Virus genome (UHGV): UHGV-0241329
Reading direction: 5' to 3' (one strand)
DNA: 31,428 nucleotides
Origin: a virus
Below are positions 7,152 through 22,533 of the stretch, in pieces; within the stretch, counting starts at the first letter, position 1, and each line of letters opens with the position of its first letter. Position numbers and translations under genes: made by a program. The notes under the pieces are model-generated. The model was not told the origin of the DNA and did no database searches. It worked only from the letters and a program-made list of their open reading frames with translations.

Positions 7152-8451
7152 TCTCCCGCATATTGCCAGTATGGCCTTTAATGAGCCGCTGATGCTTGAA
7201 CCCGCCTATGCGCGGGTTTTCTTTTGTGCGCTTGCAGGCCAGCTTGGGATCAGCCGCCTGACGGATGCGGTGTCCGGCGACAGCCTGACTGCCGGAGAGG
7301 CACCCGCGGCGCTGGCGTTATCCGTTGATGATGACGGACCACGACAGGCCCGCAGTTATCAGGTCATGAACGGCATCGCCGTGCTGCCGGTGTCCGGCAC
7401 GCTGGTCAGCCGGACGCGGGCGCTGCAGCCGTATTCGGGGATGACCGGTTACAACGGCATTATCGCCCGTCTGCAACAGGCTGCCAGCGATCCGATGGTG
7501 GACGGCATTCTGCTGGATATGGACACACCGGGCGGGATGGTGGCGGGAGCATTTGACTGTGCTGACATCATCGCCCGTGTGCGAGACATAAAACCGGTAT
7601 GGGCGCTGGCCAACGACATGAACTGCAGTGCAGGTCAGCTGCTTGCCAGCGCCGCCTCCCGGCGTCTGGTCACGCAGACCGCCCGGACAGGCTCCATCGG
7701 CGTCATGATGGCTCACAGTAATTACGGTGCTGCGCTGGAGAAACAGGGCGTGGAAATCACGCTGATTTACAGCGGCAGCCATAAGGTGGATGGCAACCCC
7801 TACAGCCATCTACCGGATGATGTCCGGGAAACACTGCAGTCCCGGATGGATGCAACCCGCCGGATGTTTGCACAGAAGGTGTCGGCATATACCGGCCTGT
7901 CCGTGCAGGCTGTGCTGGATACCGAGGCTGCAGTGTACAGCGGTCAGGAGGCCATTGATGCCGGACTGGCTGATGAACTTGTGAACAGTACCGATGCGAT
8001 CACCGTCATGCGTGATGCACTGGATGCACGTAAATCCCGTCTCTCAGGAGGGCGAATGACCAAAGAGACTCAATCAACAACTGTTTCAGCCACTGCTTCG
8101 CAGGCTGACGTTACTGGCGTGGTGCAAGCGACGGAGGGCGAGAACGCCAGCGCTGCGCAGCCGGACGTGAACGCGCAGATCACCGCAGCGGTTGCGGCAG
8201 AAAACAGTCGCATTATGGGGATCCTCAACTGTGAGGAGGCTCACGGACGCGAAGAACAGGCATGCGTGCTGGCCGAAACCCCCGGTATGACCGTGGAAAC
8301 GGCCCGCCGTATTCTGGCCGCAGCACCACAGAGTGCACAGGCGCGCAGTGACACTGCGCTGGATCGTCTGATGCAGGGGGCACCGGCACCGCTGGCTGCA
8401 GGTAACCCGGCATCTGATGCCGTTAACGATTTGCTGAACACACCAGTGTAA
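7132..8451 (+). CDS. C: Head maturation protease / scaffold C
   Basis: GTG start at 7132 preceded by GAGGAGGAG gives a 439-aa product beginning (M)SAELRNLPHIASMAFNEPLML, lambda gpC-like; overlaps B 3' end. Confidence 0.85.
7846..8451 (+). CDS. Nu3: Scaffolding protein Nu3, in-frame internal start within C
   Basis: ATG at 7846 in the C frame; 606 nt, same length and nested arrangement as lambda Nu3. Confidence 0.75.
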   Translation: MDATRRMFAQKVSAYTGLSVQAVLDTEAAVYSGQEAIDAGLADELVNSTDAITVMRDALDARKSRLSGGRMTKETQSTTVSATASQADVTGVVQATEGENASAAQPDVNAQITAAVAAENSRIMGILNCEEAHGREEQACVLAETPGMTVETARRILAAAPQSAQARSDTALDRLMQGAPAPLAAGNPASDAVNDLLNTPV

Positions 8452-8460
8452 GGGATGTTT

Positions 8461-8793
8461 ATGACGAGCAAAGAAACCTTTACCCATTACCAGCCGCTGG
8501 GCAACAGTGACCCGGCTCATACCGCAACCGCGCCCGGCGGGTTGAGTGCGAAAGCGCCTGCAATGACCCCGCTGATGCTGGACACCTCCACCCGTAAGCT
8601 GGTTGCGTGGGATGGCACCACCGACGGTGCTGCCGTTGGCATTCTTGCAGTTGCTGCTGACCAGACCAGCACCACACTGACGTTCTACAAGTCCGGCACG
8701 TTCCGTTATGAGGATGTGCTCTGGCCGGAGGCTGCCAGCGACGAGACGAAAAAACGGACCGCGTTTGCCGGAACGGCAATCAGCATCGTTTAA
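8461..8793 (+). CDS. D: Head decoration protein D
   Basis: 110-aa product [27 protein letters not shown]..., recalled lambda gpD. Confidence 0.95.
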
Positions 8794-8814
8794 CCTGACC
8801 CTTCATCACTAAAG

Positions 8815-8835
8815 GCCGCCTGTGCGGCTTTTTTT
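8815..8835 (+). terminator. Stem-loop with T-run between D and E
   Basis: GCCGC-CTGT-GCGGC followed by TTTTTTT. Confidence 0.4.
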
Positions 8836-8848
8836 ACGGGATTTTTTT

Positions 8849-9124
8849 ATGTCGATGTACACAACCGCCCAGCTGCTGGCGGCAAATGAGCAGAAATTTA
8901 AGTTTGATCCGCTGTTTCTGCGTCTCTTTTTCCGTGAGAGCTATCCCTTCACCACGGAGAAAGTCTATCTCTCACAAATTCCTGGACTGGTAAACATGGC
9001 GCTGTACGTTTCGCCAATTGTTTCCGGTGAGGTTATCCGTTCCCGTGGCGGCTCCACCTCTGAATTTACGCCGGGTTATGTCAAGCCGAAGCACTTAGCA
9101 TGGCTTTCTGAGGCTTTCGTGTAG
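8849..9124 (+). pseudogene. E: Major capsid protein E, 5' fragment (about 82 codons) truncated by the insertion and fused to 9 foreign codons (LAWLSEAFV)
   Basis: MSMYTTAQLLAANEQKFKFDPLFLRLFFRESYPFTTEKVYLSQIPGLVNMALYVSPIVSGEVIRSRGGSTSEFTPGYVKPKH matches recalled lambda gpE N-terminus, then diverges at 9094. Confidence 0.9.
9084..9093. repeat. attL core, AGCCGAAGCA (left copy of 10-bp direct repeat)
   Basis: Identical 10-mer at 9084..9093 and 20351..20360, exactly where lambda E homology stops and resumes. Confidence 0.8.
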
Positions 9125-9203
9125 TTGCTGGTTTTTACACTTAATCTTTTGATAATAAAGAATAAGTTTATCTGGCGCTTTCACTGAATTTTCCTCGTTA
9201 TCT

Positions 9204-9245
9204 GTGTGTTGCAATCATCTCTGTATTGCAGCTTGTATTGCTTTT
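9204..9245. repeat. Putative integrase arm-type sites (TGTATTGCA-like repeats) in attL arm
   Basis: TGTTGCAA / TGTATTGCA / TGTATTGC at 9207..9241; same motif twice near attR (20253..20273). Confidence 0.45.
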
Positions 9246-9256
9246 TGGGGCTAAAA

Positions 9257-10492
9257 ATGGCTGGCGAGAACAAACTGAGCGACAAAGCGCTTAAAGGATA
9301 TCTGGGGAAACCCAGAGAAAAGCAGATCACCATTGCTGATGGAAAGGGGCTTTCTATTCGTGTGAGTACTAAAGGGGCTGTGAGCTTTGTTTTCTTCTAC
9401 AGGTTAGCAGGTGGCCGGGCTGCTCCGGTCTGGCTAACGTTGGGTAAATATCCTGATATGTCACTCAAATAGGCAAGGGAAAAGCGCGACGAGTGCCGTG
9501 GTTGGTTGGTTGACAAACGTGATCCGCGTATCCAGATTAAGATTCAGGCTGAAGAACGCTTAAAGCCGGTCACAGTGGAGGATGCACTAAATTACTGGTA
9601 TGAAAATTACTGTAAGGTGCGTCGTAAAACTCATGCTGTAACGCTTGGCAGATTTCGAAAGCATATCTTTCCCTATATCGGTCATTTGCCCGTAAATGAC
9701 ACTCACCTATATGAATGGCTGGACTGTTTTGACCGAATTAAACGTAATGCACCAGTTATGGCGGCGTATGTTTTTTCTGACACTAAATTAGCTCTTCGTT
9801 TTTGTCGGGTACGCCAGTACGCGACGTGTGATGCTTTAAAGGATTTGCGCATGAGTGATGTGGGGCAGATTGCAGGTAAGCGGGATCGGGTTCTGGATGA
9901 AGCCGAACTGGGCCAGCTCTGGAAGGCAATTTTTGTCGAGCCTGATTTAAAACTAATGTCTGAATACACGCGAAAAATGTTTGTGCTTTGTACAGTATTT
10001 GGATGTCGAATGAGTGAAGCCCGATTATCTGAATGGAGCGAATGGGATCTCGAAAGTTGGGTTTGGACTGTACCAAAAGATCACTCAAAAACTGGTGTTG
10101 AAATCGTCAGACCAGTACCTGAAATTCTACGACAGTGGGTAACGGATGTTCACGAAGAGACAAAACATACTGGTTATGTGCTGGGAAGTCTGCGAATTAG
10201 AGAAAGCGTAAGCAAGATTGGGGGGAAAATCGGTAAACGTTTGGGCCATGAAAAACAATGGTCACTACACGACCTTAGAAGAACGCTATCTACTCATCTA
10301 AGTGATCTCGGTGTTGAATTTTATGTAGTAGAACAACTGTTAGGCCATGCGCTACCTGGCGTGGCAGGTGTTTACAACAGGAGTAAGTTTATGGCTAAAA
10401 AACTGGATGCTCTGGAACTCTGGACTACATATCTCAATAGCATCGCAGCTGCTGATTCAAAAGTGACAATCCTCAAACAAAAGGCTGGTTAA
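9257..10492 (+). pseudogene. int: Tyrosine integrase (P4-like family) interrupted by in-frame amber codon TAG at 9470..9472
   Basis: Two same-frame ORFs (9206..9472 and 9506..10492) separated only by TAG; N-terminal arm-binding-like domain; C-terminal catalytic motifs HDLRRT and LLGH..GVAGVYNRS. Confidence 0.8.
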
Positions 10493-10493
10493 C

Positions 10494-10721
10494 ATGAAAA
10501 AAATGGCAATTGTTGATAAAAAGGGTCTGGAGTACATTCCTAACATTGACCGAATGATCCGTGAGAAAGAATGTCGGGAGCTAACCACTCTTGCGAACAG
10601 CACACGCTGGAAGCTGGAGAAGGAAGGAAAATTTCCTAAGCGGATCAAGATTGGCGCTACTGCGGTAGCTTATCGTCTCTCCGAAGTTCAGGCATGGATT
10701 AAGGGAGAATGGAGTAATTAA
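10494..10721 (+). CDS. alpA: AlpA-family phage transcriptional regulator / excisionase-like HTH protein
   Basis: 75-aa ORF immediately after int; sequence resembles CP4-57 AlpA-type HTH proteins (LSEVQAWIKG-like C-terminus). Confidence 0.7.
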   Translation: MKKMAIVDKKGLEYIPNIDRMIREKECRELTTLANSTRWKLEKEGKFPKRIKIGATAVAYRLSEVQAWIKGEWSN

Positions 10722-10739
10722 ATAATAAGGTATTTCGAT

Positions 10740-11561
10740 ATGACAATGTGTGTTATTTGGAAGTCAGTTGATGGAACTATTTATGCCGCCACAGATTCTC
10801 GACTGAGCTTTGAAGAAAAAAAGTTAGATCGTTGCGTTAAAATATCCCGAATCACATGTCTTTTACATGAGCCTAGTGATGCAGTAGATACAAGTAAGAT
10901 ACTTGTTGATAAGCGTGAGATTGCTACATTATTCTGTGGAGGCTTTACAAATGCCTATATCATCAAGGAGAGCCTTACTGAGATTTTAAATAAAATAGTT
11001 CTCATGAGGGAATACTCCGGTGTGCCCTTTTCGGAAATTATAGATATAGCGTTTTCCATTTATGAAGATACATCAAGAGATATGTTTGCATCATTAATGG
11101 ACCAACGATTTGGATGTGTTTTTTACATGATAAGTTACTGCCCTGTATATAAGGAAATGCAAGCATTTAAATTTGAATTCAAAATAAATGAAAGCGGTAT
11201 TAACTATTATAAATCTAAACTTTTTGAAGATCGTAACTATGAGGTTAATGGAAGTGGGGTGAGGTACTTGGAACAAAATCATCGTATTGAAGATCTAGTT
11301 AAAGAAGCTTATCAGAAGAATAAATACACACCACTTCTAGATATACTTGAGTCCGTAATTAATGATGACGACTGTGACTCTGTTGGAGGTGCAATGCAAT
11401 ACATTTCATGTAATAAAGATAGTCTAAAATTGTGTTGTCATATGTTATTTGAAGAAAATAATTATAAGTATATGAAAGCTGGGGTGGACTTAAATGAACT
11501 CAATGAGAAGTTTATACCTTCTGGTTTGTTTTTTGAGACAGATGCAATCATCAAAAGATAA
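10740..11561 (+). CDS. Hypothetical protein, AT-rich cargo gene
   Basis: 273-aa ORF, visibly AT-rich; no motif recognised; N-terminus MTMCVIW... gives only a faint hint of an N-terminal Cys nucleophile. Confidence 0.55.
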   Translation: MTMCVIWKSVDGTIYAATDSRLSFEEKKLDRCVKISRITCLLHEPSDAVDTSKILVDKREIATLFCGGFTNAYIIKESLTEILNKIVLMREYSGVPFSEIIDIAFSIYEDTSRDMFASLMDQRFGCVFYMISYCPVYKEMQAFKFEFKINESGINYYKSKLFEDRNYEVNGSGVRYLEQNHRIEDLVKEAYQKNKYTPLLDILESVINDDDCDSVGGAMQYISCNKDSLKLCCHMLFEENNYKYMKAGVDLNELNEKFIPSGLFFETDAIIKR

Positions 11562-11866
11562 ACGATAACCGACTTTGATTGTGATAATTTTATCAAGATT
11601 ATGATGAATGCTGCAGTATATCTAACATGCTGCAGTTAACTCAATTTGTATTATCGCTAATATTTTTAATAACAAGGATGTTTATTGCTTTTTTATTTGA
11701 GAGTGAACGTCTAACCATTGTTGTTCTTAGTTCTCATGGAGAGATTGGAGCTTAAAATACGCAATGTTTTGAAATCAGCGCAACTATATTCCGTAATTGT
11801 TCTTTGTCGTTCTTGCGTGGCACGGTGATACACCTCTCATGTCGGTTGTTTTTTTGAACGCAGAAA

Positions 11867-11896
11867 CATAAAACAAAGGCGACCGGGATGGTCGCC
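11867..11896 (-). terminator. Intrinsic terminator downstream of the SWIM gene
   Basis: GGCGACC-GGGAT-GGTCGCC perfect 7-bp stem; on reverse strand followed by TTTGTTTTAT. Confidence 0.6.
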
Positions 11897-11964
11897 AGTG
11901 GCATAACACTAAAATTGAGCGTATTCAGAATACCAAGTGTCGGCTGGTGGACAATGGAATCAGT

Positions 11965-12321
11965 TCAATATTTAGGTGGTTCAACAAGAGCGTTTATCAT
12001 TGCTCTCAAATTATCGCGAACACTTATCCAAGTCTGTTCTGCTCGTTCTAACTCATTAGTGTACAGCTTTAATGTTTTATCTATGCCATATGTGGCTATT
12101 AAATTTATAGCTTCTTGTAACTTTTCGGGATTATTCCTTCTTGGGGGAGTGAATATACCGCGGATTTTTCCGGTAATTAAAGCTTTACGGTGTCTACATA
12201 GAATACCTTTACTTCCTGCTGGACAATTACAAGTCATGATTAGCGAGCCAGAATCGTTTGATACAGTGACTATGTATACATCCAAACTACTGCTACTTGT
12301 TGCGAAGAATTCGTATTTCAT
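11965..12321 (-). CDS. Small SWIM-type zinc-finger protein
   Basis: 118-aa ORF with CNC-x9-CRH (CxCx(n)CxH) motif; co-oriented 28 bp downstream of RHH gene. Confidence 0.55.
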   Translation of the reverse strand: MKYEFFATSSSSLDVYIVTVSNDSGSLIMTCNCPAGSKGILCRHRKALITGKIRGIFTPPRRNNPEKLQEAINLIATYGIDKTLKLYTNELERAEQTWISVRDNLRAMINALVEPPKY

Positions 12322-12348
12322 GTGTTAGCTCCTTGACTTCAATTATTC

Positions 12349-12543
12349 TTATCCTTTTGGTTCAATACCGCGCCGTAGCAGCTCTTTGCGCCCTAACTCT
12401 TTAAGCCAGTTGGCAAGGCTTACCCCATCGTTACTGGCTTCGTTATCAAACTGCTCCTTCAATTCAGGAACTATGCGCATATGGAACGGTGGGGCCTTTC
12501 CTGTGCCTTTTTGTTTTTTATCGCGCTTAATAACCGTTGACAT
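12349..12543 (-). CDS. Ribbon-helix-helix (Arc/CopG-like) DNA-binding protein, candidate element repressor
   Basis: 64-aa ORF; FHMRIVPELKEQF beta-strand followed by helices; start codon overlaps a palindromic operator. Confidence 0.5.
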   Translation of the reverse strand: MSTVIKRDKKQKGTGKAPPFHMRIVPELKEQFDNEASNDGVSLANWLKELGRKELLRRGIEPKG

Positions 12544-12600
12544 GTGTACACCTATAGCGTTATGTTTTTATTCGATAGGTGTACACCTTAACATGTGTGC
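12541..12600. promoter_or_regulatory. Divergent control region with palindromic operators
   Basis: GTGTACACCTAT (12544..12555) and its inverted copy ATAGGTGTACAC (12575..12586), each containing palindrome GTGTACAC; ACATGTGT repeated; TTGACA at 12537..12542. Confidence 0.5.
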
Positions 12601-12878
12601 ATTTAAAAACGCAACGCCCCGCAGTGCGGGAACACATGCAGGGCGTCTAACCACCAACGATAGCAACAGTATCGAGGTAGCTATGAGAAATCATACCACA
12701 CACCCGCAAGGGCGGGACTCGCACAACCTGAATAAATTCACTTGGCGCTTTATCGCCCTGAGTGCGGCTAAACCGCGCATGCTTACCATCGTGGTCACCA
12801 GCGAGCAGGAAGACCGCCAGCAATCCCCAACTGGCTGCGTGATGATATTCGCCGCCCGTATTCGTCAGGAGGTGTGCC

Positions 12879-13103
12879 ATGAATGATCTTTATTTTAAAG
12901 TGCTGACACATGCTGAAAACGCGCTCGTTTGTGGCAAAAATATGCGAGAAATCTTATCAACCTGGCTTGATGGGACAACAAATGCGGAACACGATGAACG
13001 GGATGCTAATTTAGCTGGAGCGTTAATTACGTTACTTGATCCTGTCATCAAAGAGCTGGATGAAGCTATAAAAATACACGACCAGAGCTATACCGGAGAA
13101 TAA
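12879..13103 (+). CDS. Hypothetical small protein
   Basis: 74-aa ORF, first gene of the rightward operon leading to primase. Confidence 0.45.
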   Translation: MNDLYFKVLTHAENALVCGKNMREILSTWLDGTTNAEHDERDANLAGALITLLDPVIKELDEAIKIHDQSYTGE

Positions 13104-13106
13104 AAA

Positions 13107-13394
13107 ATGAAAAATAAATTTTCTGGCTTTATTGCCAGCGGTCAAACTCATTCAAAAATCAGCCTTGGGGATATTTTCAAAGACAGCTATGGCTATCGGG
13201 TAAAGATTATTTCGGTTGATGATCGTCGTGTCTCTTATTTGCGTGATGGTTATGATTTTGAATGTGTTATGCCGCGTCAGCAGTTCGAAAGAGATTTCAT
13301 TCTGGTAAAAAATTGCAAGACAGATAATCAGAGGCGTGCCGCAGGCTATATCCGTAAAATTCGGGCAATGTTAGTTGCCGGAGGTAACAAATGA
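13107..13394 (+). CDS. Hypothetical small protein
   Basis: 95-aa ORF; 3' end overlaps primase start (ATGA). Confidence 0.45.
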   Translation: MKNKFSGFIASGQTHSKISLGDIFKDSYGYRVKIISVDDRRVSYLRDGYDFECVMPRQQFERDFILVKNCKTDNQRRAAGYIRKIRAMLVAGGNK

Positions 13395-15211
13395 AACGTG
13401 CTCCGAACTTAAAATACCAACCGCGCGACAAAATGACGGAAGTCATCATTTTTGCTGGCAGTGATGCCTGGAGCCATGCAAAAGAATGGAATGAATGGGC
13501 AGGTAAGCATATTGCAGCAGATGATACACCACCAGTCATTCTGGGTACGGAACAACTGGAAAACCTGGATGATATGCAAATTATCGATGAAGGCCGTCAT
13601 TATGTGCGTGTTTATCGTGCCGGAAAGATTGCAGAGAAAAGTCTGACGAAGGTTGCGACATTACTTGCTATTGCAGGCGTAAAGGAAGCACGTTGTTACC
13701 GTAGCTTTGTTGATCGAGAGCCTGAAGACTGGACTCCGCGCCTTGTCGGCCTAAAAGCTGAAGCGGAGCATGGGGAAAGTCTGGTGATTGAACTGCCAGT
13801 GAAGAAGGCAGAGCGCAAAAATGACGAGCGTGCTTCATCTTTGGCGTTGAATCAGATGGGGGCCAGCCAGCGCGGTGAAGTTCTCCTTGCACATTACGGC
13901 GGTGAACTGGCAATCAATGCCGACTCTGACACCGTTCATCATTACAACGGCGTTGTATGGGAGCCGGTTCAGGATAAAGAGTTACAGCGTTCTATGGCGC
14001 AGATTTTCATTGATGCGGAGATCAGCTATTCGCAGAACGCTATTAAATCGGCGGTAGATACCATGAAGTTAAGTTTGCCTGTAATGGGGAATACAGCCCG
14101 TAACCTGATTGGATTCAGTAACGGGGTATTTGATACCAGAACTGGTAATTTTCGGGAGCATAACAAAAACGACTGGTTGTTAATTGCCAGTGAATTACCT
14201 TTCAGCCCACCAGCAGAGGGGGAAACGCTGGCAACACATGCGCCGAATTTCTGGAAGTGGTTGCGCCGTTCGGTGGCTGAGAATGACCGCAAGGCAGATC
14301 GCGTACTGGCGGCATTATTCATGGTGCTGGCGAACCGGTACGACTGGCAGTTATTCATTGAGGTAACAGGGCCGGGGGGAAGTGGTAAAAGTGTGATGGC
14401 GGAGATTTGCACCATGCTGGCGGGTAAGGCTAATACAGTATCAGCAAGCATGAAGGCGCTGGAAGATGCAAGGGAACGTGCGTTAGTGGTTGGCTTTTCG
14501 CTGATTATCATGCCGGATATGACCCGCTACGCTGGTGATGGGGCAGGGATTAAGGCCATTACAGGCGGTGACAAGGTGGCAATTGACCCGAAACACAAAG
14601 CCCCCTATTCAACGCGTATTCCGGCAGTAGTGCTGGCGGTTAACAATAACGCCATGTCATTCAGTGACCGCAGCGGGGGGATCTCACGTCGTCGGGTGAT
14701 ATTCAATTTTTCGGAAGTTGTACCGGAGAACGAACGCGATTCGATGCTGGCGGAAAAAATAGAAGGTGAGCTGGCGGTAGTGATTCGTCATCTGCTTACA
14801 AGGTTTGCTGATCAGGACGAAGCCAGACGCCTGTTATATGAGCAGCAGAAATCTGAAGAAGCACTGGCGATAAAGCGAGAGGGGGATTCGCTGGTGGACT
14901 TCTGCGGTTATCTCATGGCATCGGTAATGTGTGATGGCCTGTTAGTGGGTAATGCTGAAATTGTGCCATTCAGCCCACGCAGGTATCTCTATCATGCCTA
15001 TCTGGCTTATATGAGGGCACATGGGTTTGGTAAACCTGTAACACTGACGCGCTTCGGTAAAGATATGCCGGGGGCAATGGCGGAATATGGCAGGGAGTAT
15101 ATGAAACGGAAAACGAAGCACGGTTTGCGTTCAAACGTGACACTGACGGAGGAATCAGAAGACTGGATGCCATCATGTGTATCGGTCACTAATGACGATA
15201 GCAAAAATTAA
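13391..15211 (+). CDS. Primase-helicase replication protein (P4 alpha / PICI Pri-Rep-like)
   Basis: 606-aa ORF; Walker A EVTGPGGSGKS in C-terminal half; followed directly by iteron origin. Confidence 0.75.
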   Translation: MKRAPNLKYQPRDKMTEVIIFAGSDAWSHAKEWNEWAGKHIAADDTPPVILGTEQLENLDDMQIIDEGRHYVRVYRAGKIAEKSLTKVATLLAIAGVKEARCYRSFVDREPEDWTPRLVGLKAEAEHGESLVIELPVKKAERKNDERASSLALNQMGASQRGEVLLAHYGGELAINADSDTVHHYNGVVWEPVQDKELQRSMAQIFIDAEISYSQNAIKSAVDTMKLSLPVMGNTARNLIGFSNGVFDTRTGNFREHNKNDWLLIASELPFSPPAEGETLATHAPNFWKWLRRSVAENDRKADRVLAALFMVLANRYDWQLFIEVTGPGGSGKSVMAEICTMLAGKANTVSASMKALEDARERALVVGFSLIIMPDMTRYAGDGAGIKAITGGDKVAIDPKHKAPYSTRIPAVVLAVNNNAMSFSDRSGGISRRRVIFNFSEVVPENERDSMLAEKIEGELAVVIRHLLTRFADQDEARRLLYEQQKSEEALAIKREGDSLVDFCGYLMASVMCDGLLVGNAEIVPFSPRRYLYHAYLAYMRAHGFGKPVTLTRFGKDMPGAMAEYGREYMKRKTKHGLRSNVTLTEESEDWMPSCVSVTNDDSKN

Positions 15212-15220
15212 ACTTATGGA

Positions 15221-15455
15221 ATAACTGTTCACCACTGTTCACCCTGTCATAAATATCTTTTATATCAGTATATTATAGGGTGAACAGTTATTTATGAACT
15301 GTTCACCAAACTATTCACTGTTCACCTTTTTGATTGTTTATTGAGCTTCAAGGGTGAACAGTGGTGAACAGTTGGTGAATAGTTTTTGTGAAACTGTTCA
15401 CCCATTAACATTATGAATTAAAAGAGAAAATATCAAAAGGTGAACAGGTGAAGGG
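15221..15455. repeat. ori: Replication origin with iterons (TGTTCACC / GGTGAACA), at least 9 copies in both orientations
   Basis: CTGTTCACC at 15225 and 15235; GGTGAACAG at 15278, 15352, 15362, 15439; further copies at 15299, 15318, 15394; interspersed AT-rich stretches. Confidence 0.75.
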
Positions 15456-15498
15456 TTAAAACGCAAAAATTTTAATTTACTGCTGTGAGATAAAGCCT

Positions 15499-15744
15499 AT
15501 GACAGCGAAGCACACAAAAAAATCACAATCGCACGCCCTTGATTTGACGGAACACTGGTTAAGGGTGTCGATAAAAATCATCGACCGCAACGCCGGGGAA
15601 GGATACGCGAAAGCACATCCCGAACTGATTAGCGCATTCATGACAACGGCGGCTGCAAACTTTGCCACTCTGACCGAACGGGAGATTGCTGAAGCGGAGG
15701 AAGTGACAACAATCAATATTAAGTCCGGAGAGCAGGCAGCATGA
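15499..15744 (+). CDS. Hypothetical protein
   Basis: 81-aa ORF between ori and ssb; ATGA overlap with ssb. Confidence 0.45.
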   Translation: MTAKHTKKSQSHALDLTEHWLRVSIKIIDRNAGEGYAKAHPELISAFMTTAAANFATLTEREIAEAEEVTTINIKSGEQAA

Positions 15745-16190
15745 CGGCGCAAATATCAGTTTACGGGCGGTTGGTGGACGACCCGCAGACAAAACAGACC
15801 AGCAAGAGCACCCCCATGACGCTGGCACGTATGGCGGTATCACTGCCCTGCAGTCAGTCGGATGACGGTCAGGCGACGATGTGGTTATCTGTCCTGGCGT
15901 TTGGCAGACAAGCCGACGCGCTGGCAAAGCATCACAAAGGCGAACTCCTGAGCGTGGCGGGTAATATGCAGGTGAGCCAGTGGACTGGACAGAACGGTGA
16001 AACGCGGCAGGGCTGGCAGGTTATCGCAGACAGCGTAATCAGTGCGCGAACGGTGCGACCGGGCGGCAAAAAAGGTCAACAGGGTCAGGCTACTGACGCA
16101 CTGAACAGAGCAAAACAACAGGCAGATCAGCAAGGAAGCCATCCACCAGTGGGAGATAATGAGCAATGGGGAGATGATATTCCGTTTTAA
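15741..16190 (+). CDS. ssb: Single-stranded DNA-binding protein
   Basis: 149-aa ORF; Gly/Gln-rich linker and acidic C-terminal tail ...GDDIPF, typical of SSB. Confidence 0.8.
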   Translation: MTAQISVYGRLVDDPQTKQTSKSTPMTLARMAVSLPCSQSDDGQATMWLSVLAFGRQADALAKHHKGELLSVAGNMQVSQWTGQNGETRQGWQVIADSVISARTVRPGGKKGQQGQATDALNRAKQQADQQGSHPPVGDNEQWGDDIPF

Positions 16191-16402
16191 ATATTGCCAA
16201 TAAAAAAGGCCGGAAAAAAAATAAATTTTCCGGCATGCTACATAAATCCCGACCAAAGGGAGTGAAGATATTAACACTAATTATCCGCGCTGAAGTTGTT
16301 ATCCCAAAACTTTATACAACATTGCACTCGGTTGCATGTATTCGCATGATAAATATCGGTGATAGCATATATCCACAATTATTTTTAATGAATGCAAAGA
16401 GG

Positions 16403-17449
16403 ATGCGTATGGTTGATTTATATTCGCCTACCCAGCTTGTACAGGTGGTTAATGCTGTAGATGTACAAAAACAACTAAATGCGTTGTTTACCAGTTTGTT
16501 TTTTACTCGCTCGGTAATGTTTGAATCGCGCGATATTATTCTTGATACAATCGACGATCCAAATATCCCAATTGCAGCGTTTTGTTCTCCTATGGTGGGT
16601 AGTAAAGTTTCACGTGACGAAGGGTACGAATCAAAAACAATTCGTCCAGGCTATATGAAGCCGAAAAGCAGCATTGATCCAAATAAGTTAGCTGTGCGCC
16701 CTGCTGGTGTATCACCTGAGCAATACAATGCTTTTGGAGCGCGTAATATTAAAGTTAAACAGGCGATTGTAAATCAGGCTAAAGCTATTCGTGCACGTAT
16801 TGAATGGCTTGCCGTTCAGGCAATCACAACGGGGAAAAATATCATTGAGGGCGATGGTATTGAACGTTATGAGCTGGACTGGAATATTAAACCACAAAAT
16901 ATCATCACTCAGTCTGGCGGTGCTGAGTGGTCAGGTAAGGATAAAGAAACTTTTGATCCAAATGATGATATTGAGAGCTACGCAGAATTTAGTGAGGGCG
17001 TCACTAATATCATCATTATGGGCGGTAATGTATGGAAGAAATACCGTTCATTCAGAGCGATAAAAGAGGCTCTGGATACCCGTCGTGGTTCTAATTCCGA
17101 ACTGGAAACGGCCCTTAAAGACCTTGGTGATTCGGTGAGTTTTAAAGGGTATATGGGCGATGTTGCGATTGTTGTATACAGCGGGCGTTATACCGATGAG
17201 GACGGAACTGAAAAACATTTCCTTGATCCTGATTTGATGGTGCTTGGCAATACAGCTCTTCAGGGGATTGTCGCCTATGGCGGTATTCAGGATCCGGAGC
17301 TAATCCGAATGGGGCTGACTAAAGCCGAACTTGCACCGAAAAACTATATTGTGCCTGGTGATCCGGCTATTGAATATGTGCAGACACATTCAGCACCACA
17401 GCCAATACCGGCCCGCATCAATCGTTTTGTTACCGTTCGCATTGGCTAA
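16403..17449 (+). CDS. Major capsid protein, divergent homolog of lambda gpE, encoded by the element
   Basis: Aligns along its length with lambda gpE, e.g. ITQSGGAEWSGKDKETFDPNDDIESYA vs ITQSGGTEWSKRDKSTYDPTDDIEAYA, and LDTRRGSNSELETA identical; start uncertain among ATG 16388/16403/16409. Confidence 0.8.
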   Translation: MRMVDLYSPTQLVQVVNAVDVQKQLNALFTSLFFTRSVMFESRDIILDTIDDPNIPIAAFCSPMVGSKVSRDEGYESKTIRPGYMKPKSSIDPNKLAVRPAGVSPEQYNAFGARNIKVKQAIVNQAKAIRARIEWLAVQAITTGKNIIEGDGIERYELDWNIKPQNIITQSGGAEWSGKDKETFDPNDDIESYAEFSEGVTNIIIMGGNVWKKYRSFRAIKEALDTRRGSNSELETALKDLGDSVSFKGYMGDVAIVVYSGRYTDEDGTEKHFLDPDLMVLGNTALQGIVAYGGIQDPELIRMGLTKAELAPKNYIVPGDPAIEYVQTHSAPQPIPARINRFVTVRIG

Positions 17450-17458
17450 GGGGGAGCA

Positions 17459-17800
17459 ATGGCTACTCATTACACTGAACTCATGGCTGGCACTGAAGCA
17501 CTGGTGACTACGCTGGGGATATTTTCAGCTAATAAAGGGGTAATTCCTGCATTTACGCCACTGATGCAGGAAGATGCAACAGGTGCACTGGTGGTATGGG
17601 ATGGTTCGAGCGTAGGTAAAGCGGTTTATGTTTCCGCTGTACAAATCGACACCGCGAAAAAAACACAGGCTCAGGTCTATAAGACAGGTGTCTTAAATGT
17701 TGATGCTCTGAACTGGCCTGAGTCTGTAAAAGAACTGTCAGTAAAGATTGCAGCGTTTGTTGGCTCAGGTATTTCTGTTCAGCCGCTGGCTCGTGTGTAA
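17459..17800 (+). CDS. Head decoration protein, divergent homolog of lambda gpD
   Basis: 113 aa; LVVWDGSSVGKAVYVSAVQ...KTGVLNVDALNWPE...AAFVGSGISV parallels lambda gp[20 protein letters not shown]...[14 protein letters not shown]...[11 protein letters not shown]. Confidence 0.65.
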   Translation: MATHYTELMAGTEALVTTLGIFSANKGVIPAFTPLMQEDATGALVVWDGSSVGKAVYVSAVQIDTAKKTQAQVYKTGVLNVDALNWPESVKELSVKIAAFVGSGISVQPLARV

Positions 17801-17811
17801 AGGGGGATACA

Positions 17812-18195
17812 ATGCAGAATGATTACAATGACCTTAAGCCAATTGCCGAAATGATGTACCCGAATCCAGCTGTAGAGGAATTAAAAGCTATCGCTGACAA
17901 AATGTGTTTAAGCGAGCGCCTTGTTGATATGAATCAGGTGATGGAAATTACAACCCTGAGTCGGCGTACACTGCTAAACCTTGAGGCTAGTGGAGAGTTC
18001 CCGGAGCGTGTGCAGGTTACGGAAGGGCGTAAGGCCTGGTATTTAAGTGAAGTGATCGACTGGATAAATAATATTCCTCGCGCTTCTGAATATTGCCGCG
18101 TACCTGTCCCAAAAAAGCCAGATGCGGCGCTATGCCTCAAGATTGAGCGTGTACGCCGCAATGCACGGGATGGTCGCTATAAGCTGATTGGTTGA
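17812..18195 (+). CDS. HTH protein (AlpA-like DNA-binding segment) immediately upstream of element cos
   Basis: 127 aa; segment MNQVMEITTLSRRTLLNLEASGEFPERVQVTEGRKAWYLSEVIDWINN resembles AlpA/MerR-type HTH. Confidence 0.5.
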   Translation: MQNDYNDLKPIAEMMYPNPAVEELKAIADKMCLSERLVDMNQVMEITTLSRRTLLNLEASGEFPERVQVTEGRKAWYLSEVIDWINNIPRASEYCRVPVPKKPDAALCLKIERVRRNARDGRYKLIG

Positions 18196-18214
18196 TGAAA
18201 TTAGGGCCCGCTCT

Positions 18215-18425
18215 GGCTGGCGGGTCCTTTCTGGCGATCTGACAGGCTACGGGGCGTCAGGCGCGCAGATTCTTGCTATTTATGACAATTTTCTGCGATT
18301 TGCCGTTTCCGTTCTTCTTCCTCGTAACTTAGTGTTTTTATTAGAAATACCCTCTAAAAAGAAAGGAAATGACAGGTGCTGAAAACAGGCTTTTGGGTCT
18401 CCGTCATTTCCTTTCTCATTTTTAT
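18215..18425 (+). other. cos: Element cos site, homologous to prophage cos but with divergent cohesive-end sequence GGGCGTCAGGCG (18252..18263)
   Basis: Aligns with 2690..2900: cosQ-like GCGGGTCCTTTCTGGCGATCTGACAGGCTACG and cosB-like GTTTCCGTTCTTCTTC / AAAGAAAGGAAATGACAGGTGCTGAAA conserved; cohesive-end 12-mer differs at 5 of 12 positions. Confidence 0.8.
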
Positions 18426-18679
18426 CTAAAAGTAAGCATCGAGGCCACCCCAAATGCTTATAGAGGTTATTGTGTCACTATGCGTACTGTTCAGGATTTA
18501 AAGTAGCAAGACATCTAGTTGCTTGCAGTTTTGGCGAATGATGTGAGGTTCTGCTATAACAGATAATGTAACAAGTTACTGATATATTCTGTTATGGTTG
18601 ACTTTAAATTTTGTTGCTCCTTCAATGAATTATTGAGGGGTGAAAATTAGGCGTGATAAGAATCGATCACGCCTATTGT

Positions 18680-19996
18680 TTATCTTGAAGAAATTTTAGG
18701 CAGGCTTTTTAAAAATAAATCTTTATTTCTACTTGCATCAGTTAAAAGTGTTAGGAATATTTTATCTGTAGGAGTGCATGTGCTCTTGTTTAACAGTAAT
18801 TCACCAAGTTTCTGTAATCGAGAGAATTGCCCATCCTCTTGGATTCTGTGACGAAGTGTACTATCATTTTTAATAACATCAACAAATGCAGAAACCATGT
18901 TAATATCAAAGTGTTCAAACATTTCCAATATTAAAGGTGCAGCCCCATTTGAATAAAAATTCTTCCTTCCATACTGATAGCTGAAACCACGATGGCCAAC
19001 ATAAGTTTTTGTAATGGCTGAAACAAATTCAACAATATTATCTTCAGGGACGAAACTCGAGAATGGTAATAATTGGGTTACGATTTTTTCCTCTTCTGAC
19101 CAATTATCTAAAGACTCGGTGAGTTTATTAATGAGAGGCTCAATAATAACTTTTCGGGATGCAGGGCTAATATACATCAGTCCATCTACCAATAGTATGA
19201 ATTGTTGTGCCTTCTCTATCTTATTGTTGTTTCCTGAAACTAAATACTTGTCAAATTGTTGGCCGACTTTACGTCGGTCGTCTTTTGAAAGTAATGTCCA
19301 TAAAATAGGTGCGCAAAATTCAATGTTGTTTCTGAGTTCACTTGATATATTGGATGAGCAGTATGTGCCAAAAAAACGAGAGGATAATTCACTGATATAA
19401 ATTGCAGGTAGATCTGAAAAGGCTTGCTTAACTGCCAGGCTATTTTTATTAAATGTTGCCGAATCCATTTCTGAAAGATATGTAGATATATCTATGATGG
19501 CTGGTGGAAACTCTTTAGAAAGAACGTATTTATTACAATCATTAATCAGGTTCACTACTTTGATTAAATCAGGGTCGCTACTTTGTGGATGTCCACCAAA
19601 TAGATTCCTGGTTTCTCTAGCTTGTTGTAATAGTTTCTGACCTTCTCGATCGATAACTCCTATTTTAAATGCTCCATCTATTAAATCAAAGTCGCTCACA
19701 TAATCCTGAAAATCTTCATACGTTTTAATTTCTTTTTTTTGTTTACACTCTTTGTTGAATAGATCTAGGCTACGATGAATTATCTTTTGACGTAAATCAT
19801 CAACTACAGCATTCCAGTAAGCAGTGATGGCACTTCTATAACCTTTTACAGGAAGAACTCTTATTGCTTCTGAAATATATGGGCAGTCAACTACATCATG
19901 CCTCACAGTTGAGAGCGCAGTTTGTAACAATGTAACTTCTGTAGAGTCTAGTGGAGTTGGCTGCACTAAATGAGAACTTATCTCTGTACCCTTCAT
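18680..19996 (-). CDS. Hypothetical protein, AT-rich cargo gene at attR end
   Basis: 438-aa ORF on reverse strand, visibly AT-rich; no motif recognised; hairpin AGGCGTGAT-N8-ATCACGCCT at 18649..18674 just 3' of it. Confidence 0.55.
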   Translation of the reverse strand: MKGTEISSHLVQPTPLDSTEVTLLQTALSTVRHDVVDCPYISEAIRVLPVKGYRSAITAYWNAVVDDLRQKIIHRSLDLFNKECKQKKEIKTYEDFQDYVSDFDLIDGAFKIGVIDREGQKLLQQARETRNLFGGHPQSSDPDLIKVVNLINDCNKYVLSKEFPPAIIDISTYLSEMDSATFNKNSLAVKQAFSDLPAIYISELSSRFFGTYCSSNISSELRNNIEFCAPILWTLLSKDDRRKVGQQFDKYLVSGNNNKIEKAQQFILLVDGLMYISPASRKVIIEPLINKLTESLDNWSEEEKIVTQLLPFSSFVPEDNIVEFVSAITKTYVGHRGFSYQYGRKNFYSNGAAPLILEMFEHFDINMVSAFVDVIKNDSTLRHRIQEDGQFSRLQKLGELLLNKSTCTPTDKIFLTLLTDASRNKDLFLKSLPKISSR

Positions 19997-20350
19997 TTCA
20001 GGATTTTCCTATTCTTTTCCATTTTTCTACTCTATTGAATTTGAAAAAGATATCAAGTTCGTTCTTGCCAGTTTTAAGTGGAAAAATTGATGTTACCTTA
20101 TTGAGATAAGGCAGTTCTCTATAACCTATTGTTATTAATTATTTTTATTTTTTTTCCAATTCAGATGTTTAGGGCTAAGAAGTTAAGTGAGAGTTCACAG
20201 CAAAACTGCTTCTAGTTCCTCACCGAGGAGCAAAAGGTTAAGACAGCGTACTTTGTATTGCACAATGTATTGCAGAACCTTCTTTCGAAAGCTACAACAA
20301 TCAATTTTATATTGAAAATTCAATCATATCCTTTCGATATTGACTCATAT

Positions 20351-20360
20351 AGCCGAAGCA
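20351..20360. repeat. attR core, AGCCGAAGCA (right copy of 10-bp direct repeat)
   Basis: Identical to 9084..9093; lambda E homology resumes here. Confidence 0.8.
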
Positions 20361-21141
20361 TGAGGTGAATCCGCAGATGACCCTGCGTCGCCTGCCGGAT
20401 GAAGATCCGCAGAATCTGGCGGACCCGGCTTACCGCCGCCGTCGCATCATCCTGCAGAACATGCGTGACGAAGAGCTGGCCATTGCTCAGGTCGAAGAGA
20501 TGCAGGCAGTTTCTGCCGTGCTCAAGGGCAAATACACCATGACCGGTGAAGCCTTCGATCCGGTTGAGGTGGATATGGGCCGCAGTGCGGCGAACAACAT
20601 CACGCAGTCCGGCGGCACGGAGTGGAGCAAGCGTGACAAGTCCACGTATGACCCGACCGACGATATCGAAGCCTACGCGCTGAACGCCAGCGGCGTGGTG
20701 AATATCATCGTGTTTGATCCGAAAGGCTGGGCGCTGTTCCGTTCCTTCAAAGCCGTCAAGGAGAAGCTGGATACCCGTCGCGGCTCTAATTCCGAGCTGG
20801 AGACAGCGGTAAAAGACCTGGGCGAAGCGGTGTCCTATAAGGGGATGTATGGCGATACGGCGATCGTCGTGTATTCCGGACAGTACGTGGAAAACGACGT
20901 CAAAAAGAACTTCCTGCCGGACAACACGATGGTGCTGGGGAACACTCAGGCACGCGGTCTGCGCACCTATGGCTGCATTCAGGATGCGGACGCACAGCGC
21001 GAAGGTATTAACGCCTCTGCCCGCTACCCGAAAAACTGGGTGACCACCGGCGATCCGGCGCGTGAGTTCACCATGATTCAGTCAGCACCGCTGATGCTGC
21101 TGGCTGATCCTGATGCGTTCGTGTCCGTACAACTGGCGTAA
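20353..21141 (+). pseudogene. E: Major capsid protein E, 3' fragment (from codon about 80) lacking its native start
   Basis: PKHEVNPQMTLRRLPDEDPQNLADPAYRRRR...VSVQLA matches recalled lambda gpE C-terminal 260 aa; in-frame TAG at 20350..20352 immediately upstream. Confidence 0.9.
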
Positions 21142-21182
21142 TCATGGCCCTTCGGGGCCATTTTCTCTCTGTGGAGGAGTCC

Positions 21183-21578
21183 ATGACGAAAGATGAACTG
21201 ATTGCCCGTCTTCAGGTGCTGGGTGAGCAACTGAACCGTGATGTCAGCCTGACGGGGACGAAAGAAGAACTGGTGCTCCGTGTGGCAGAGCTGGAAGAGG
21301 AGCTTGATGACACGGATGACGCTGCCGGTCAGGACACATCTGTCAGCCCGGAAAATGCGCTGACCGGACATGAAAATGAGGTGGTATCAGCGCAGCCGGA
21401 TACCGTGATTGATACGGCTGCTCTGGTCACGGTCGTGGCACTGGTGACGCTGCATACTGATGCACTTCACGCCACGCGGGATGAGCCTGTGGCATTTGTG
21501 CTGCCGGGAACGGCGTTTCGTGTCTCTGCCGGTGTGGCAGCCGAAATGACAGAACATGGCCTGGCCAGAATGCAATAA
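21183..21578 (+). CDS. FI: DNA-packaging accessory protein FI
   Basis: MTKDELIARLQVLGEQLNRDVSLTGTKEEL..., recalled lambda gpFI; RBS GGAGGAG upstream. Confidence 0.9.
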   Translation: MTKDELIARLQVLGEQLNRDVSLTGTKEELVLRVAELEEELDDTDDAAGQDTSVSPENALTGHENEVVSAQPDTVIDTAALVTVVALVTLHTDALHATRDEPVAFVLPGTAFRVSAGVAAEMTEHGLARMQ

Positions 21579-21589
21579 CGGGAGGCGCT

Positions 21590-21943
21590 GTGGCTGATTC
21601 CGATAACCTGTTCGATGCTGCCATTGCCCGCGCCGATGAAACGATACGCGGGTACATGGGAACGTCAGCCACCATGACATCCGGTGAGCTGTCCGGTGCT
21701 GTGATACGTGGTGTTTTTGATGACCCTGAAAATATCAGCTATGCCGGACAGGGGGTGCGCGTTGAAGGCTCCAGCCCGTCCCTGTTTGTCCGGACTGATG
21801 ATGTGCGGCAGCTGCGGCGTGGAGACACACTGACCATCGGCGAGGAAAACTTCTGGGTGGACCGGATTTCGCCGGATGATGGCGGAAGCTGTCATCTCTG
21901 GCTTGGGCGTGGCGTGCCGCCTGCCGTTAACCGTCGCCGCTGA
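21590..21943 (+). CDS. FII: Head-tail connector protein FII
   Basis: 117 aa, lambda gpFII length and position. Confidence 0.9.
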   Translation: MADSDNLFDAAIARADETIRGYMGTSATMTSGELSGAVIRGVFDDPENISYAGQGVRVEGSSPSLFVRTDDVRQLRRGDTLTIGEENFWVDRISPDDGGSCHLWLGRGVPPAVNRRR

Positions 21944-21954
21944 AAGGGGGATGT

Positions 21955-22533
21955 ATGGCCATAAAAGGTCTTGAGCAGGCCGTTGAAAACCTCAGCCGTA
22001 TCAGCAAAACGGCGGTGCCTGGTGCCGCCGCAATGGCCATTAACCGCGTTGCGTCATCCGCGATATCGCAGTCTGCGTCACAGGTTGCCCGTGAGACAAA
22101 GGTACGCCGGAAACTGGTAAAGGAAAGGGCCAGGCTGAAAAGGGCCACGGTCAAAAATCCGCAGGCCAGAATCAGGGTTAACCGGGGGGATTTGCCCGTA
22201 ATCAAGCTGGGTAACGCGCGGGTTGTCCTTTCCCGCCGCAGACGTCGTAAAAAGGGGCAGCGTTCATCCCTGAAAGGTGGCGGCAGCGTGCTTGTGGTGG
22301 GAAACCGTCGTATTCCCGGCGCGTTTATTCAGCAACTGAAAAATGGCCGGTGGCATGTCATGCAGCGTGTGGCCGGGAAAAACCGTTACCCCATTGATGT
22401 GGTGAAAATCCCGATGGCGGTGCCGCTTACCACGGCGTTTAAACAGAATATTGAACGGATACGGCGTGAACGTCTTCCGAAAGAGCTGGGCTATGCGCTG
22501 CAGCATCAACTGAGAATGGTAATAAAGCGATGA
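21955..22533 (+). CDS. Z: Tail completion protein Z
   Basis: 192 aa, lambda gpZ length and position. Confidence 0.9.
   Translation: MAIKGLEQAVENLSRISKTAVPGAAAMAINRVASSAISQSASQVARETKVRRKLVKERARLKRATVKNPQARIRVNRGDLPVIKLGNARVVLSRRRRRKKGQRSSLKGGGSVLVVGNRRIPGAFIQQLKNGRWHVMQRVAGKNRYPIDVVKIPMAVPLTTAFKQNIERIRRERLPKELGYALQHQLRMVIKR

Follow-up and report, generated by a model that had tools for sequence, protein, structure and literature searches.

The helper-embedded phage-inducible chromosomal island (HE-PICI) Eco567.11capE (11capE) of E. coli NRG857c was published in 2023 by Tommasini, Mageeney and Williams (NAR Genom Bioinform, PMC10111431). After induction, this satellite excises late, in 42–98% of replicated composites, and E is thereby restored; recovery of helper or satellite virions was unsuccessful with this prototype (PMC10111431). 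HE-PICIs are organized in integration, Bro/immunity, replication and late zones, in this order, and their attP carries a doubled tgTGTATTGCantgTGTATTGCa motif 81 ± 2 bp upstream and 132 ± 2 bp downstream of its centre (PMC10111431). The idea that a satellite capsid could be a ‘backup copy’ was raised in the same work (PMC10111431).

A capsid gene (c1499) and a head decoration gene (c1500) without other head genes were reported in the classical E. coli PICI EcCICFT073 by Fillol-Salom et al. (ISME J 2018, PMC6092414). Deletion of c1499 or c1500 altered neither transfer nor lambda interference, thus giving no phenotype, and the packaged DNA of EcCICFT073 was all phage-sized (PMC6092414). On the other hand, capsid-forming PICIs (cfPICIs) also carry genes for a protease, a portal, head-tail connectors, HNH, TerS and TerL, and produce complete capsids of small size (Alqurainy et al., bioRxiv 10.1101/2022.09.08.507074). 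We found no later literature on what the PICI capsid/decoration pair does.

Results

A satellite inserted in the helper E gene

An 11.27-kb element occupies positions 9084–20360 of the window, which here refers to the whole 31,428-nt stretch of viral DNA that was analysed (UHGV-0241329). It is inserted in the E gene of a lambda-like helper prophage, which it cuts after codon 82, at the codon 80–82 site, without supplying any replacement sequence. The 5′ fragment of helper E (codons 1–82; 8849–9093, + strand), identified by translation and labeled ‘major capsid protein, missing C-terminus’ by PGAP in relatives, reads into satellite DNA for eight foreign codons and then meets a stop at 9124. The 3′ fragment (codons 83–341; 20361–21141, +) was likewise identified by translation. 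When the two parts are joined at the 10-bp core, an intact 341-aa E results; the disruption of helper E described in an earlier, sequence-only reading of this DNA is real.

The core, AGCCGAAGCA, is a 10-bp identity block repeated exactly at attL (9084–9093, +) and attR (20351–20360, +), and a scan of the whole window finds it at 9084 and 20351 only. The supplement of PMC10111431 gives this block for the E_Phage_cap_E_80 group, and its alignment and table agree with the attL flank and core. A doubled TGTATTGC arm motif starts ~132 bp downstream from the centre of the core (9220–9242, +), and another ends 81 bp upstream of it (20252–20274, +); both match the HE-PICI attP motif in position and sequence (PMC10111431). 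The reconstructed attP accordingly has the doubled TGTATTGC motifs at −81 and +132. The attL junction was found in 173 of 5,426 complete E. coli genomes. We conclude that the element is an HE-PICI of the published E:Phage_cap_E:80 group, the prototype of which is 11capE.

Genes carried by the element

Every core satellite gene lies on the + strand, co-oriented with the helper late operon, and the integration (int, alpA), replication (primase, SSB) and late zones occur in HE-PICI order. The tyrosine integrase (9257–10492, +), with Arm-DNA-bind_3 and Phage_integrase domains, is identical to the 11capE integrase at 408 of 412 residues and would thereby belong with the HE-PICI integrases, but is broken in the window copy by an in-frame TAA at 9470–9472, where ET665 and NRG857c have CAA. 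Next to it lies an AlpA-family regulator/excisionase (10494–10721, +; Pfam Phage_AlpA, 6e-15). The variable hotspot after alpA, occupied by DUF2971 in relatives, holds here a 273-aa cargo ORF (10740–11561, +) that matched PHROG 16034 (unknown function) only, Pfam and PADLOC searches giving no match. The second zone contains an Icd-like remnant with SWIM and Arc-like ORFs, but a Bro-N domain was not detected in it. Rfam detected no C4/isrK immunity RNAs, which are known from the Bro zones of some PICIs, at E ≤ 0.1 across 9000–20500.

The replication genes encode a P4-type primase/helicase (13391–15211, +; D5_N, DUF5906 and Pox_D5 domains by Pfam/PHROG matches) and a single-strand DNA-binding protein (15741–16190, +; Pfam SSB, 4.5e-15). 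Behind the capsid and decoration genes is a second AlpA-family helix-turn-helix protein of 127 aa (17812–18195, +; Pfam Phage_AlpA, 7.6e-9; AlpA structure PDB 8C3T, 2e-9). An Rpp-type terminase-redirecting protein was considered for this ORF and rejected, as the PDB sequence search returned AlpA (8C3T) only and no Rpp structure. Sequence comparison revealed no Rpp homologue, and the element would not need one because its cosB is helper-like.

The late zone ends with the satellite cos (18220–18423, +), 82.5% identical to the helper prophage cos (2684–2887, +), which has its cosN, GGGCGGCGACCT, at 2716–2727 and lies upstream of Nu1 at 2905. The satellite cos contains lambda-like cosN flanks and a likewise lambda-like cosB, whose R sites are conserved in alignment with the helper. 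Its 12-nt cohesive end, GGGCGTCAGGCG, is a variant that is kept in relatives. A second variable hotspot follows cos, and holds a 438-aa cargo ORF (18680–19996, − strand) that matched PHROG 27609 (unknown function) only, with nothing from Pfam or PADLOC defence annotation; in relatives this hotspot holds TIR, HEPN+DUF262, DUF2971 or terS.

Between the att cores (9084–20360), no ORF of at least 50 aa matched portal, protease or terminase families in Pfam or PHROGs, bearing out the previous claim that they are missing from the element, and no structural genes besides capsid and decoration were found there with the same databases. The helper genes Nu1, A, W, B, C and D are present at 2905–8793. 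Because its head genes are the capsid and decoration genes only, the element must rely on a helper to provide portal, protease/scaffold, terminase and tail, as had been presumed, and its cos is helper-like.

The satellite capsid and decoration proteins

The satellite major capsid protein (346 aa; 16409–17449, +) is a gpE-family protein with the HK97 fold, supported by Pfam, PHROG, BLASTP and PDB matches. It scores 143 bits against Pfam Phage_cap_E (gathering score, 22.9 bits; E = 1.4e-41; profile positions 4–327 of 329), and matches PHROG 29 ‘major head protein’ at 1.2e-89. Pairwise BLASTP with lambda gpE gave 147 identical positions of 349 (42%) with 59% positives and E = 3e-86 in an end-to-end alignment, and the capsid is also 42% identical to the helper's own E. 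The PDB matches are lambda gpE (7VI9, 2.3e-76) and 3BQW (2.6e-121). The ATG at 16409 is more likely the start than 16403, because GAGG (16399–16402) sits 6 nt upstream of the former but directly abuts the latter; PGAP annotates the 346-aa form in relatives too. The sequence-only reading was thus correct about the full-length alignment with gpE and the LDTRRGSNSELETA shared by the two proteins, whereas its start at 16403 is the less likely one and its estimate of roughly half the residues matching was too high.

The next gene encodes a head decoration protein of the gpD/SHP family (113 aa; 17459–17800, +), supported by Pfam, PHROG and PDB matches. It scores 56.3 bits against Pfam HDPD (gathering score, 29.1 bits), and matches PHROG 49 ‘head decoration’ at 1.2e-25. 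The PDB matches include phage 21 SHP (1TD0, 6e-16) and lambda gpD (1C5E and 7VII, 1e-11). Lambda gpD and the D protein of the helper both share 38% identity with it. The order of the pair, capsid and then decoration, is opposite to the lambda order D–E, and a gpD-like gene in this position had been read from the letters alone. These similarities to gpE and gpD are significant against profiles and solved structures alike, and we take the gpE and gpD/SHP folds as settled because the matches to solved structures are direct, with E from 1e-11 to 1e-121.

Conservation of the pair

The capsid and decoration proteins match their 11capE counterparts (WP_000228111.1 and WP_000190772.1, respectively) at 100% identity, the window and the prototype differing in the two genes by three synonymous and no non-synonymous changes. 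Comparison with a chromosomal PICI homologue gave dN/dS values of 0.08 (capsid gene) and 0.11 (decoration gene). Of the seven E-embedded copies inspected, all have an intact decoration gene and six an intact capsid gene; ET665 has a nonsense codon in its capsid gene. Judged from these sequences, both genes are functional and under strong purifying selection (dN/dS ~0.1).

The SSB-capsid-decoration-HTH cassette is also present in chromosomal PICIs at unrelated sites. The capsid and decoration proteins are 84% and 94% identical to those of the window in one of them (L006), and 55% and 55% in the EcN PICI (L005), which was used in the comparisons, together with PDB 3BQW, in place of the related EcCICFT073. 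The pair is a conserved ‘late zone’ module of E. coli PICIs generally, and occurs in ~7% of complete E. coli genomes. No phage capsid more than 42% identical to the satellite capsid was found among 50,697 records, the best being that of lambda, and the best phage matches to the decoration protein are ~40% identical. The pair is an old satellite-specific capsid-plus-cement lineage, without a second-prophage origin.

Discussion

Proposed role of the pair

We consider that the element is a published HE-PICI type carrying an old satellite-specific pair with a late structural role in helper-built heads, and give this whole explanation a probability of about 0.85. By analogy with the published prototype, the composite prophage would excise and replicate upon induction, helper late transcription would run into the co-oriented satellite, and Int and AlpA would excise the satellite late, restoring E. 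The helper terminase would then recognise the lambda-like satellite cos and package concatemers into phage-sized helper heads with helper tails. Because a consensus scan for a promoter-like site before the capsid gene gave nothing above shuffled expectation, we only infer that the capsid operon is expressed by read-through. The pair would be working structural proteins that are made late and assemble on the helper portal and scaffold, supplying shell subunits and matched cement while helper E is interrupted, which corresponds to the ‘backup copy’ idea (PMC10111431).

The integrase nonsense codon of the window copy argues against self-excision, and the satellite is probably locked in place there; the composite would therefore have no intact major capsid gene other than that of the satellite. 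Both this copy and ET665, with their nonsense codons in the integrase and the capsid gene, respectively, may be decaying. While embedded, the pair might form the shell of the composite's particle on the helper portal, scaffold-protease, terminase and tail, either by substitution or as mixed gpE/satellite shells, a proposal that we hold as a tentative and rather improbable one. The satellite capsid, being 42% identical to gpE, may not be compatible with the B portal and the Nu3/C scaffold-protease of the helper.

Alternative explanations

In a stronger form, the capsid-shell substitution put forward in the sequence-only reading would be an obligatory replacement of the helper shell by the gpE/gpD-like shell, built on the portal, protease and terminase of the helper, and would generate smaller or phage-incompatible capsids in an undescribed ‘shell-only’ piracy. 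It could draw on a helper E that is interrupted without replacement sequence, a satellite pair that is intact and under purifying selection, and an integrase so broken here that the element itself would be unable to restore E, and SaPIbov5 Ccm is reported as a precedent for a satellite capsid homologue making small capsids. However, the arrangement has already been described (11capE and EcCICFT073), and shell substitution is not required because the prototype satellite excises late with E restored, in as many composites as stated above (PMC10111431). Moreover, EcCICFT073 DNA is all phage-sized with either gene deletable without effect (PMC6092414), and four copies of the 11.27-kb element make 45.1 kb, which fits a full lambda-size head. 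We regard obligatory replacement as unlikely, and by the same analogies a size-redirection device is disfavoured.

Because the pair is conserved yet dispensable for EcCICFT073 transfer (PMC6092414), it might rather act against the helper or other phages, as poison subunits co-assembling with gpE, or as decoys or triggers for capsid-sensing host systems. PICIs generally interfere with their helpers, and relatives of the element carry variable defence-type cargo at the two hotspots. Lambda interference, however, stayed in place after deletion of c1499 or c1500, and that of EcCICFT073 maps to RppA acting on TerS. A role as poison or decoy would also leave unexplained why a matched decoration protein is kept, its divergence in L006 and L005 going along with that of the capsid, and thus we find it doubtful. 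Far less probable still are leftovers of a second prophage's head module or inert passengers recently captured from the helper, even though HE-PICIs and PICIs can capture prophage late genes and the ET665 capsid gene carries a nonsense codon. The pair has no adjacent portal, protease or terminase remnants, and lies inside an element precisely bounded by att sites that has int, alpA, primase, SSB and cos, so a second-prophage remnant was rejected. A recent origin by capture, whether from the helper or from a known phage, was rejected as well with 42% and 38% identity to helper E and D and no sequenced phage closer than the best matches above, and neither origin agrees with dN/dS of ~0.1 or with the same cassette in PICIs at unrelated chromosomal sites.

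The late structural role in helper-built heads concerns a pair that is under strong purifying selection and has no close phage relative, yet could be deleted without phenotype in the one model tested. If the embedded pair forms a shell, a function would be given to this conserved, phenotype-less PICI pair, and the element would be an intermediate between classical and capsid-forming PICIs. Helper-embedded copies, above all naturally locked ones such as that of the window appears to be, are the easiest setting in which a capsid-supplying role could be shown or excluded.

Comparison with known systems

The two proteins share the Phage_cap_E and HDPD families with lambda gpE/gpD and phage 21 SHP in full-length alignments, but unlike in lambda, to which they are 42% and 38% identical, the gene order is reversed and the pair belongs to a satellite that lacks the other genes of a head operon. 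Ccm of SaPIbov5 is similarly reported to be a satellite homologue of the major capsid protein of its helper, a cos phage, without other head genes, but it makes the helper capsid protein form small capsids and has no partner decoration gene. SaPIbov5 is of an unrelated, Gram-positive lineage, and such size redirection is unseen in EcCICFT073 (PMC6092414).

P4-like satellites have sid, psu, delta and epsilon (ash) in addition to int, alpA and alpha. The element is not one of them, as its P4-like features are int, alpA and the P4-type primase only, and Sid, Psu and Delta had no PHROG or Pfam match in it. The classical PICI core set of SatelliteFinder (PMC10085698) consists of int, an alpA-type regulator, a primase-replicase, a capsid-morphogenesis homologue and a small terminase, with no other structural or lysis genes. 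The element conforms to this set: four of the five components are present, terS being absent here and present in close relatives. Like cfPICIs (e.g., EcCIEDL933), the element has its own HK97-fold major capsid protein and an int-alpA-rep backbone, but unlike them it lacks portal, protease, connectors, HNH, TerS and TerL (Pfam/PHROGs, ORFs of at least 50 aa). The comparison in the sequence-only reading was limited to cfPICIs, which carry a full head module.

EcCICFT073 has the same int-alpA-primase-SSB-capsid-decoration architecture without portal or protease, is also cos-packaged by the terminase of a lambdoid helper, and also has the capsid-then-decoration order (PMC6092414; Fillol-Salom et al., Mol Cell 2019, PMC6739421). 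The capsid of its relative, the EcN PICI, which is 55% identical to that of the window, is nearly identical to PDB 3BQW. In contrast, EcCICFT073 resides in the chromosome rather than inside the helper, and has a divergent cosB with RppA retargeting TerS, whereas the window element keeps a helper-like cosB.

The closest system is 11capE, with the same lambda-type E insertion site at codon 80–82 (PMC10111431), the same 10-bp core class with doubled arm motifs at the same distances, and the same gene order, int-alpA-...-primase-orf81-SSB-capsid-decoration-alpA2-cos. The two share capsid, decoration, AlpA2 and orf81 proteins without a single difference (100% identity), and their integrases (99%) and primases (605/607) are nearly identical. 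They differ in the core, AGCCGAAGCA in the window and AACCCAAGCA in the prototype, both variants being in the supplement of PMC10111431, and in the hotspot cargo, the 273-aa and 438-aa ORFs here and HEPN+DUF262 and others in the prototype, as well as in the nonsense codon of the window integrase. The earlier view that the arrangement is distinct from described systems therefore does not hold, since it is that of published 11capE, with the pair already known in EcCICFT073 (c1499/c1500). The element type, the E insertion and the own capsid gene have been known since 2023, and the pair in E. coli PICIs since 2018; to these the present analysis adds purifying selection on both genes, the absence of a phage capsid closer than 42% among 50,697 records and the integrase nonsense codon.

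A satellite interrupting the major capsid gene of its helper

The window holds the late region of a lambda-like prophage. Lysis genes (148-1324) are followed by cos, whose cohesive end (2716-2727) is that of lambda, GGGCGGCGACCT, and by Nu1 (2905-3450), A (3425-5350), W, B (5550-7151), C and D (8461-8793). E is split into a 5′ piece of codons 1-82 (8849-9093) and a 3′ piece of codons 83-341 (20361-21141), and FI, FII, Z, U, V, G, T, H, M, L, K and I lie in that order 3′ of the interruption. Separating the E pieces are 11,267 bp of AT-richer DNA, bounded by a 10-bp direct repeat AGCCGAAGCA (9084-9093 and 20351-20360) that has no third copy in the whole window. When the pieces are fused at the 10-bp core, an unbroken 341-aa lambda-type E protein results. 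Between the helper lysis genes and cos, minus-strand ORFs of the DUF1398 (YcgX/YbcV-like) and YlcI/YnfO families (1816-2516) are placed as in DLP12/Qin-type prophages.

Capsid and decoration genes of the satellite

The satellite ORF whose 3′ end is at 17449 scores 143 bits against Pfam Phage_cap_E (cut-off 22.9) and also matches PHROG 29. Its product can be aligned with lambda gpE from one end to the other (42% identity, 59% similarity, E = 3e-86); identity to the reconstituted helper E is 42% as well. The likeness over full length claimed in the sequence-only reading thus stands, as does the shared segment LDTRRGSNSELETA, identical in both proteins, but 'roughly half' of the residues matching was too high. 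The start had been put at 16403; ATG 16409 is the probable start, because GAGG at 16399-16402 lies 6 nt upstream of it, while immediately adjoining 16403, and because PGAP also annotates the 346-aa form.

The next gene (17459-17800), proposed to be gpD-like, proved so by matches to Pfam HDPD (56 bits, cut-off 29) and PHROG 49, its product being 38% identical to lambda gpD and likewise to helper D. Both folds are settled without modelling by sequence matches to solved structures. The top PDB match of the capsid is 3BQW, 'putative capsid protein of prophage' (2.6e-121), with lambda gpE cryo-EM chains also matched (7VI9, 2.3e-76), and the best matches of the decoration protein are phage 21 SHP (1TD0, 6e-16) and lambda gpD (1e-11).

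Other satellite genes and cos

The remaining ORFs encode an integrase, two AlpA-family proteins, a P4-type primase, an SSB, small conserved proteins and two cargo proteins without assigned function. As had been claimed, Pfam and PHROG comparisons gave no portal, protease or terminase match for any ORF of the element. For terminase this holds for the window copy and the prototype, Eco567.11capE (11capE) of E. coli NRG857c, rather than for the whole E-embedded group, because two relatives carry a small-terminase gene directly after cos (L008, 10541-11092; L009, 10442-10993), 72% identical to helper Nu1.

The cargo ORFs, of 273 aa (10740-11561, plus strand) and 438 aa (18680-19996, minus strand), match only PHROG families of unknown function, and nothing in Pfam or PADLOC. 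They sit at the two variable cargo positions, where related elements have DUF2971, TIR, HEPN+DUF262, restriction endonuclease or Nu1-like terS genes, and are candidate uncharacterised anti-phage genes. The alpA-to-replication zone (11965-12886) contains two minus-strand ORFs, one with a SWIM zinc finger and one Arc/HicB-like, and, on the plus strand, an Icd-like remnant annotated by PGAP as a pseudogene in E. coli ET665; neither a Bro-N domain nor a C4/isrK RNA was detected there.

At 18220-18423 the element has a cos-like site that shares 82.5% identity with the helper cos, with conserved cosB repeats and lambda-like cosN flanks. Its 12-nt cohesive end, within 18250-18275, is GGGCGTCAGGCG, against GGGCGGCGACCT in the helper; satellite ends would not anneal with helper ends. 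The GGGCGTCAGGCG variant is common to the ET665, NRG857c and Res13 elements, and a helper-like cos was likewise described for 11capE (PMC10111431).

Opposite defects in two near-identical copies

The satellite integrase (9257-10492) has an in-frame TAA at 9470-9472, between the arm-binding and catalytic domains, where ET665 and NRG857c have CAA. The window satellite is therefore probably incapable of self-excision and locked in helper E, in which case E would stay broken and the satellite capsid would be the sole intact major capsid gene. In the ET665 element, which shows only 5 differences over 11.27 kb, the defect is reversed: the integrase is intact, and the capsid gene carries a nonsense codon at position 19703 (window 16802; 'internal stop' in PGAP). 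The ET665 prophage apparently lacks early genes upstream of the holin.

Whereas the satellite (9094-20350) is almost identical in the two, the flanking helper head genes B, C, D, E, FI and FII (5400-9093 and 20361-22100) differ by ~3-5%, and both att cores differ in concert (AGCCGAAGCA in the window, AACCCAAGCA in ET665). This suggests that the satellite moved recently from one helper to another, or that the head region of the helper underwent recombination.

Role of the capsid-decoration pair

The two genes are not junk. Against the homologues in a chromosomal phage-inducible chromosomal island (PICI), L006, dN/dS is 0.08 for capsid and 0.11 for decoration. The capsid genes of window and prototype differ at 3 nucleotides, all synonymous, and the protein is unchanged in four other genomes despite differing cargo. 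Among seven embedded copies inspected, capsid is intact in six and decoration in all. Identity to the window pair (capsid/decoration) is 84%/94% in L006 and 55%/55% in the E. coli EcN PICI (L005), the two proteins diverging together across PICI lineages. Since no capsid among 50,697 phage records is closer than lambda's 42%, the pair belongs to an old satellite lineage rather than being a recent capture.

Real interest remains only in what the pair does. The sequence-only reading saw shell substitution, possibly yielding small or incompatible capsids, with the helper supplying the rest. Helper dependence is supported by the lack of portal, protease and terminase family matches and by the helper-like cos. 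Results for the closest relatives with experimental data disfavour both obligatory substitution and size redirection: in the classical PICI EcCICFT073, deletion of c1499 (capsid) or c1500 (decoration) leaves island transfer and lambda interference unchanged (PMC6092414), and in the 11capE composite precise excision occurs in 42-98% of replicated composites 2 h post-induction, restoring E (PMC10111431). Four elements of 11.27 kb make 45.1 kb, and the size fits multimer packaging in full-size heads.

We prefer to read capsid and decoration as working structural proteins, expressed late. Because a consensus scan found no promoter-like site upstream of the two genes, expression would probably come from read-through of helper late transcription. 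The satellite proteins may assemble on the helper portal and scaffold, and the pair would then supply a shell and matched cement for as long as E is interrupted. The same idea, of a 'backup copy', was voiced earlier by Tommasini et al. (PMC10111431).

Comparison with described PICIs

The element is, on sequence comparison, of a known kind, and its sequence is essentially known as well. 'Helper-embedded PICIs' (HE-PICIs) were described by Tommasini, Mageeney and Williams in 2023, with 201 instances mapped at site E:Phage_cap_E:80 (PMC10111431). The 10-bp identity block and attL flank of the window agree with the alignment and table in their supplement, which includes 'agccgaagca' among the core variants. 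The HE-PICI-specific doubled TGTATTGC motif occurs twice in the element. Relative to the attP core centre, one copy ends 81 bp upstream and the second begins ~132 bp downstream, the distances reported for HE-PICIs. Genes follow the same order as in the prototype region (NC_017634.1, 1199333-1210409). Four proteins (capsid, decoration, second AlpA, orf81) match those of the prototype at 100% identity, integrase at 408/412 and primase at 605/607 residues. Among 5,426 complete E. coli genomes, the E/satellite attL junction is found in 173 and the capsid-decoration pair, at ≥80% coverage, in 395.

The arrangement had been thought distinct from described PICIs, but it is that of the published HE-PICI type. 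A capsid-decoration pair lacking other head genes had been reported in EcCICFT073 by Fillol-Salom et al. in 2018 (PMC6092414), and the SSB-capsid-decoration-HTH cassette stands in the same order, without other head genes, in the chromosomal PICIs of EcN (adjoining tRNA-Pro; its capsid nearly identical to the 3BQW sequence) and L006 (between abgR and smrA). Of 29 reference Gram-negative PICIs, 21 have a capsid gene (PMC10111431), and a capsid-morphogenesis homologue is a core PICI component in SatelliteFinder (PMC10085698). The full head module invoked in the sequence-only reading is a trait of cfPICIs (bioRxiv 10.1101/2022.09.08.507074), a group to which the window element, with its shell genes only, does not belong.
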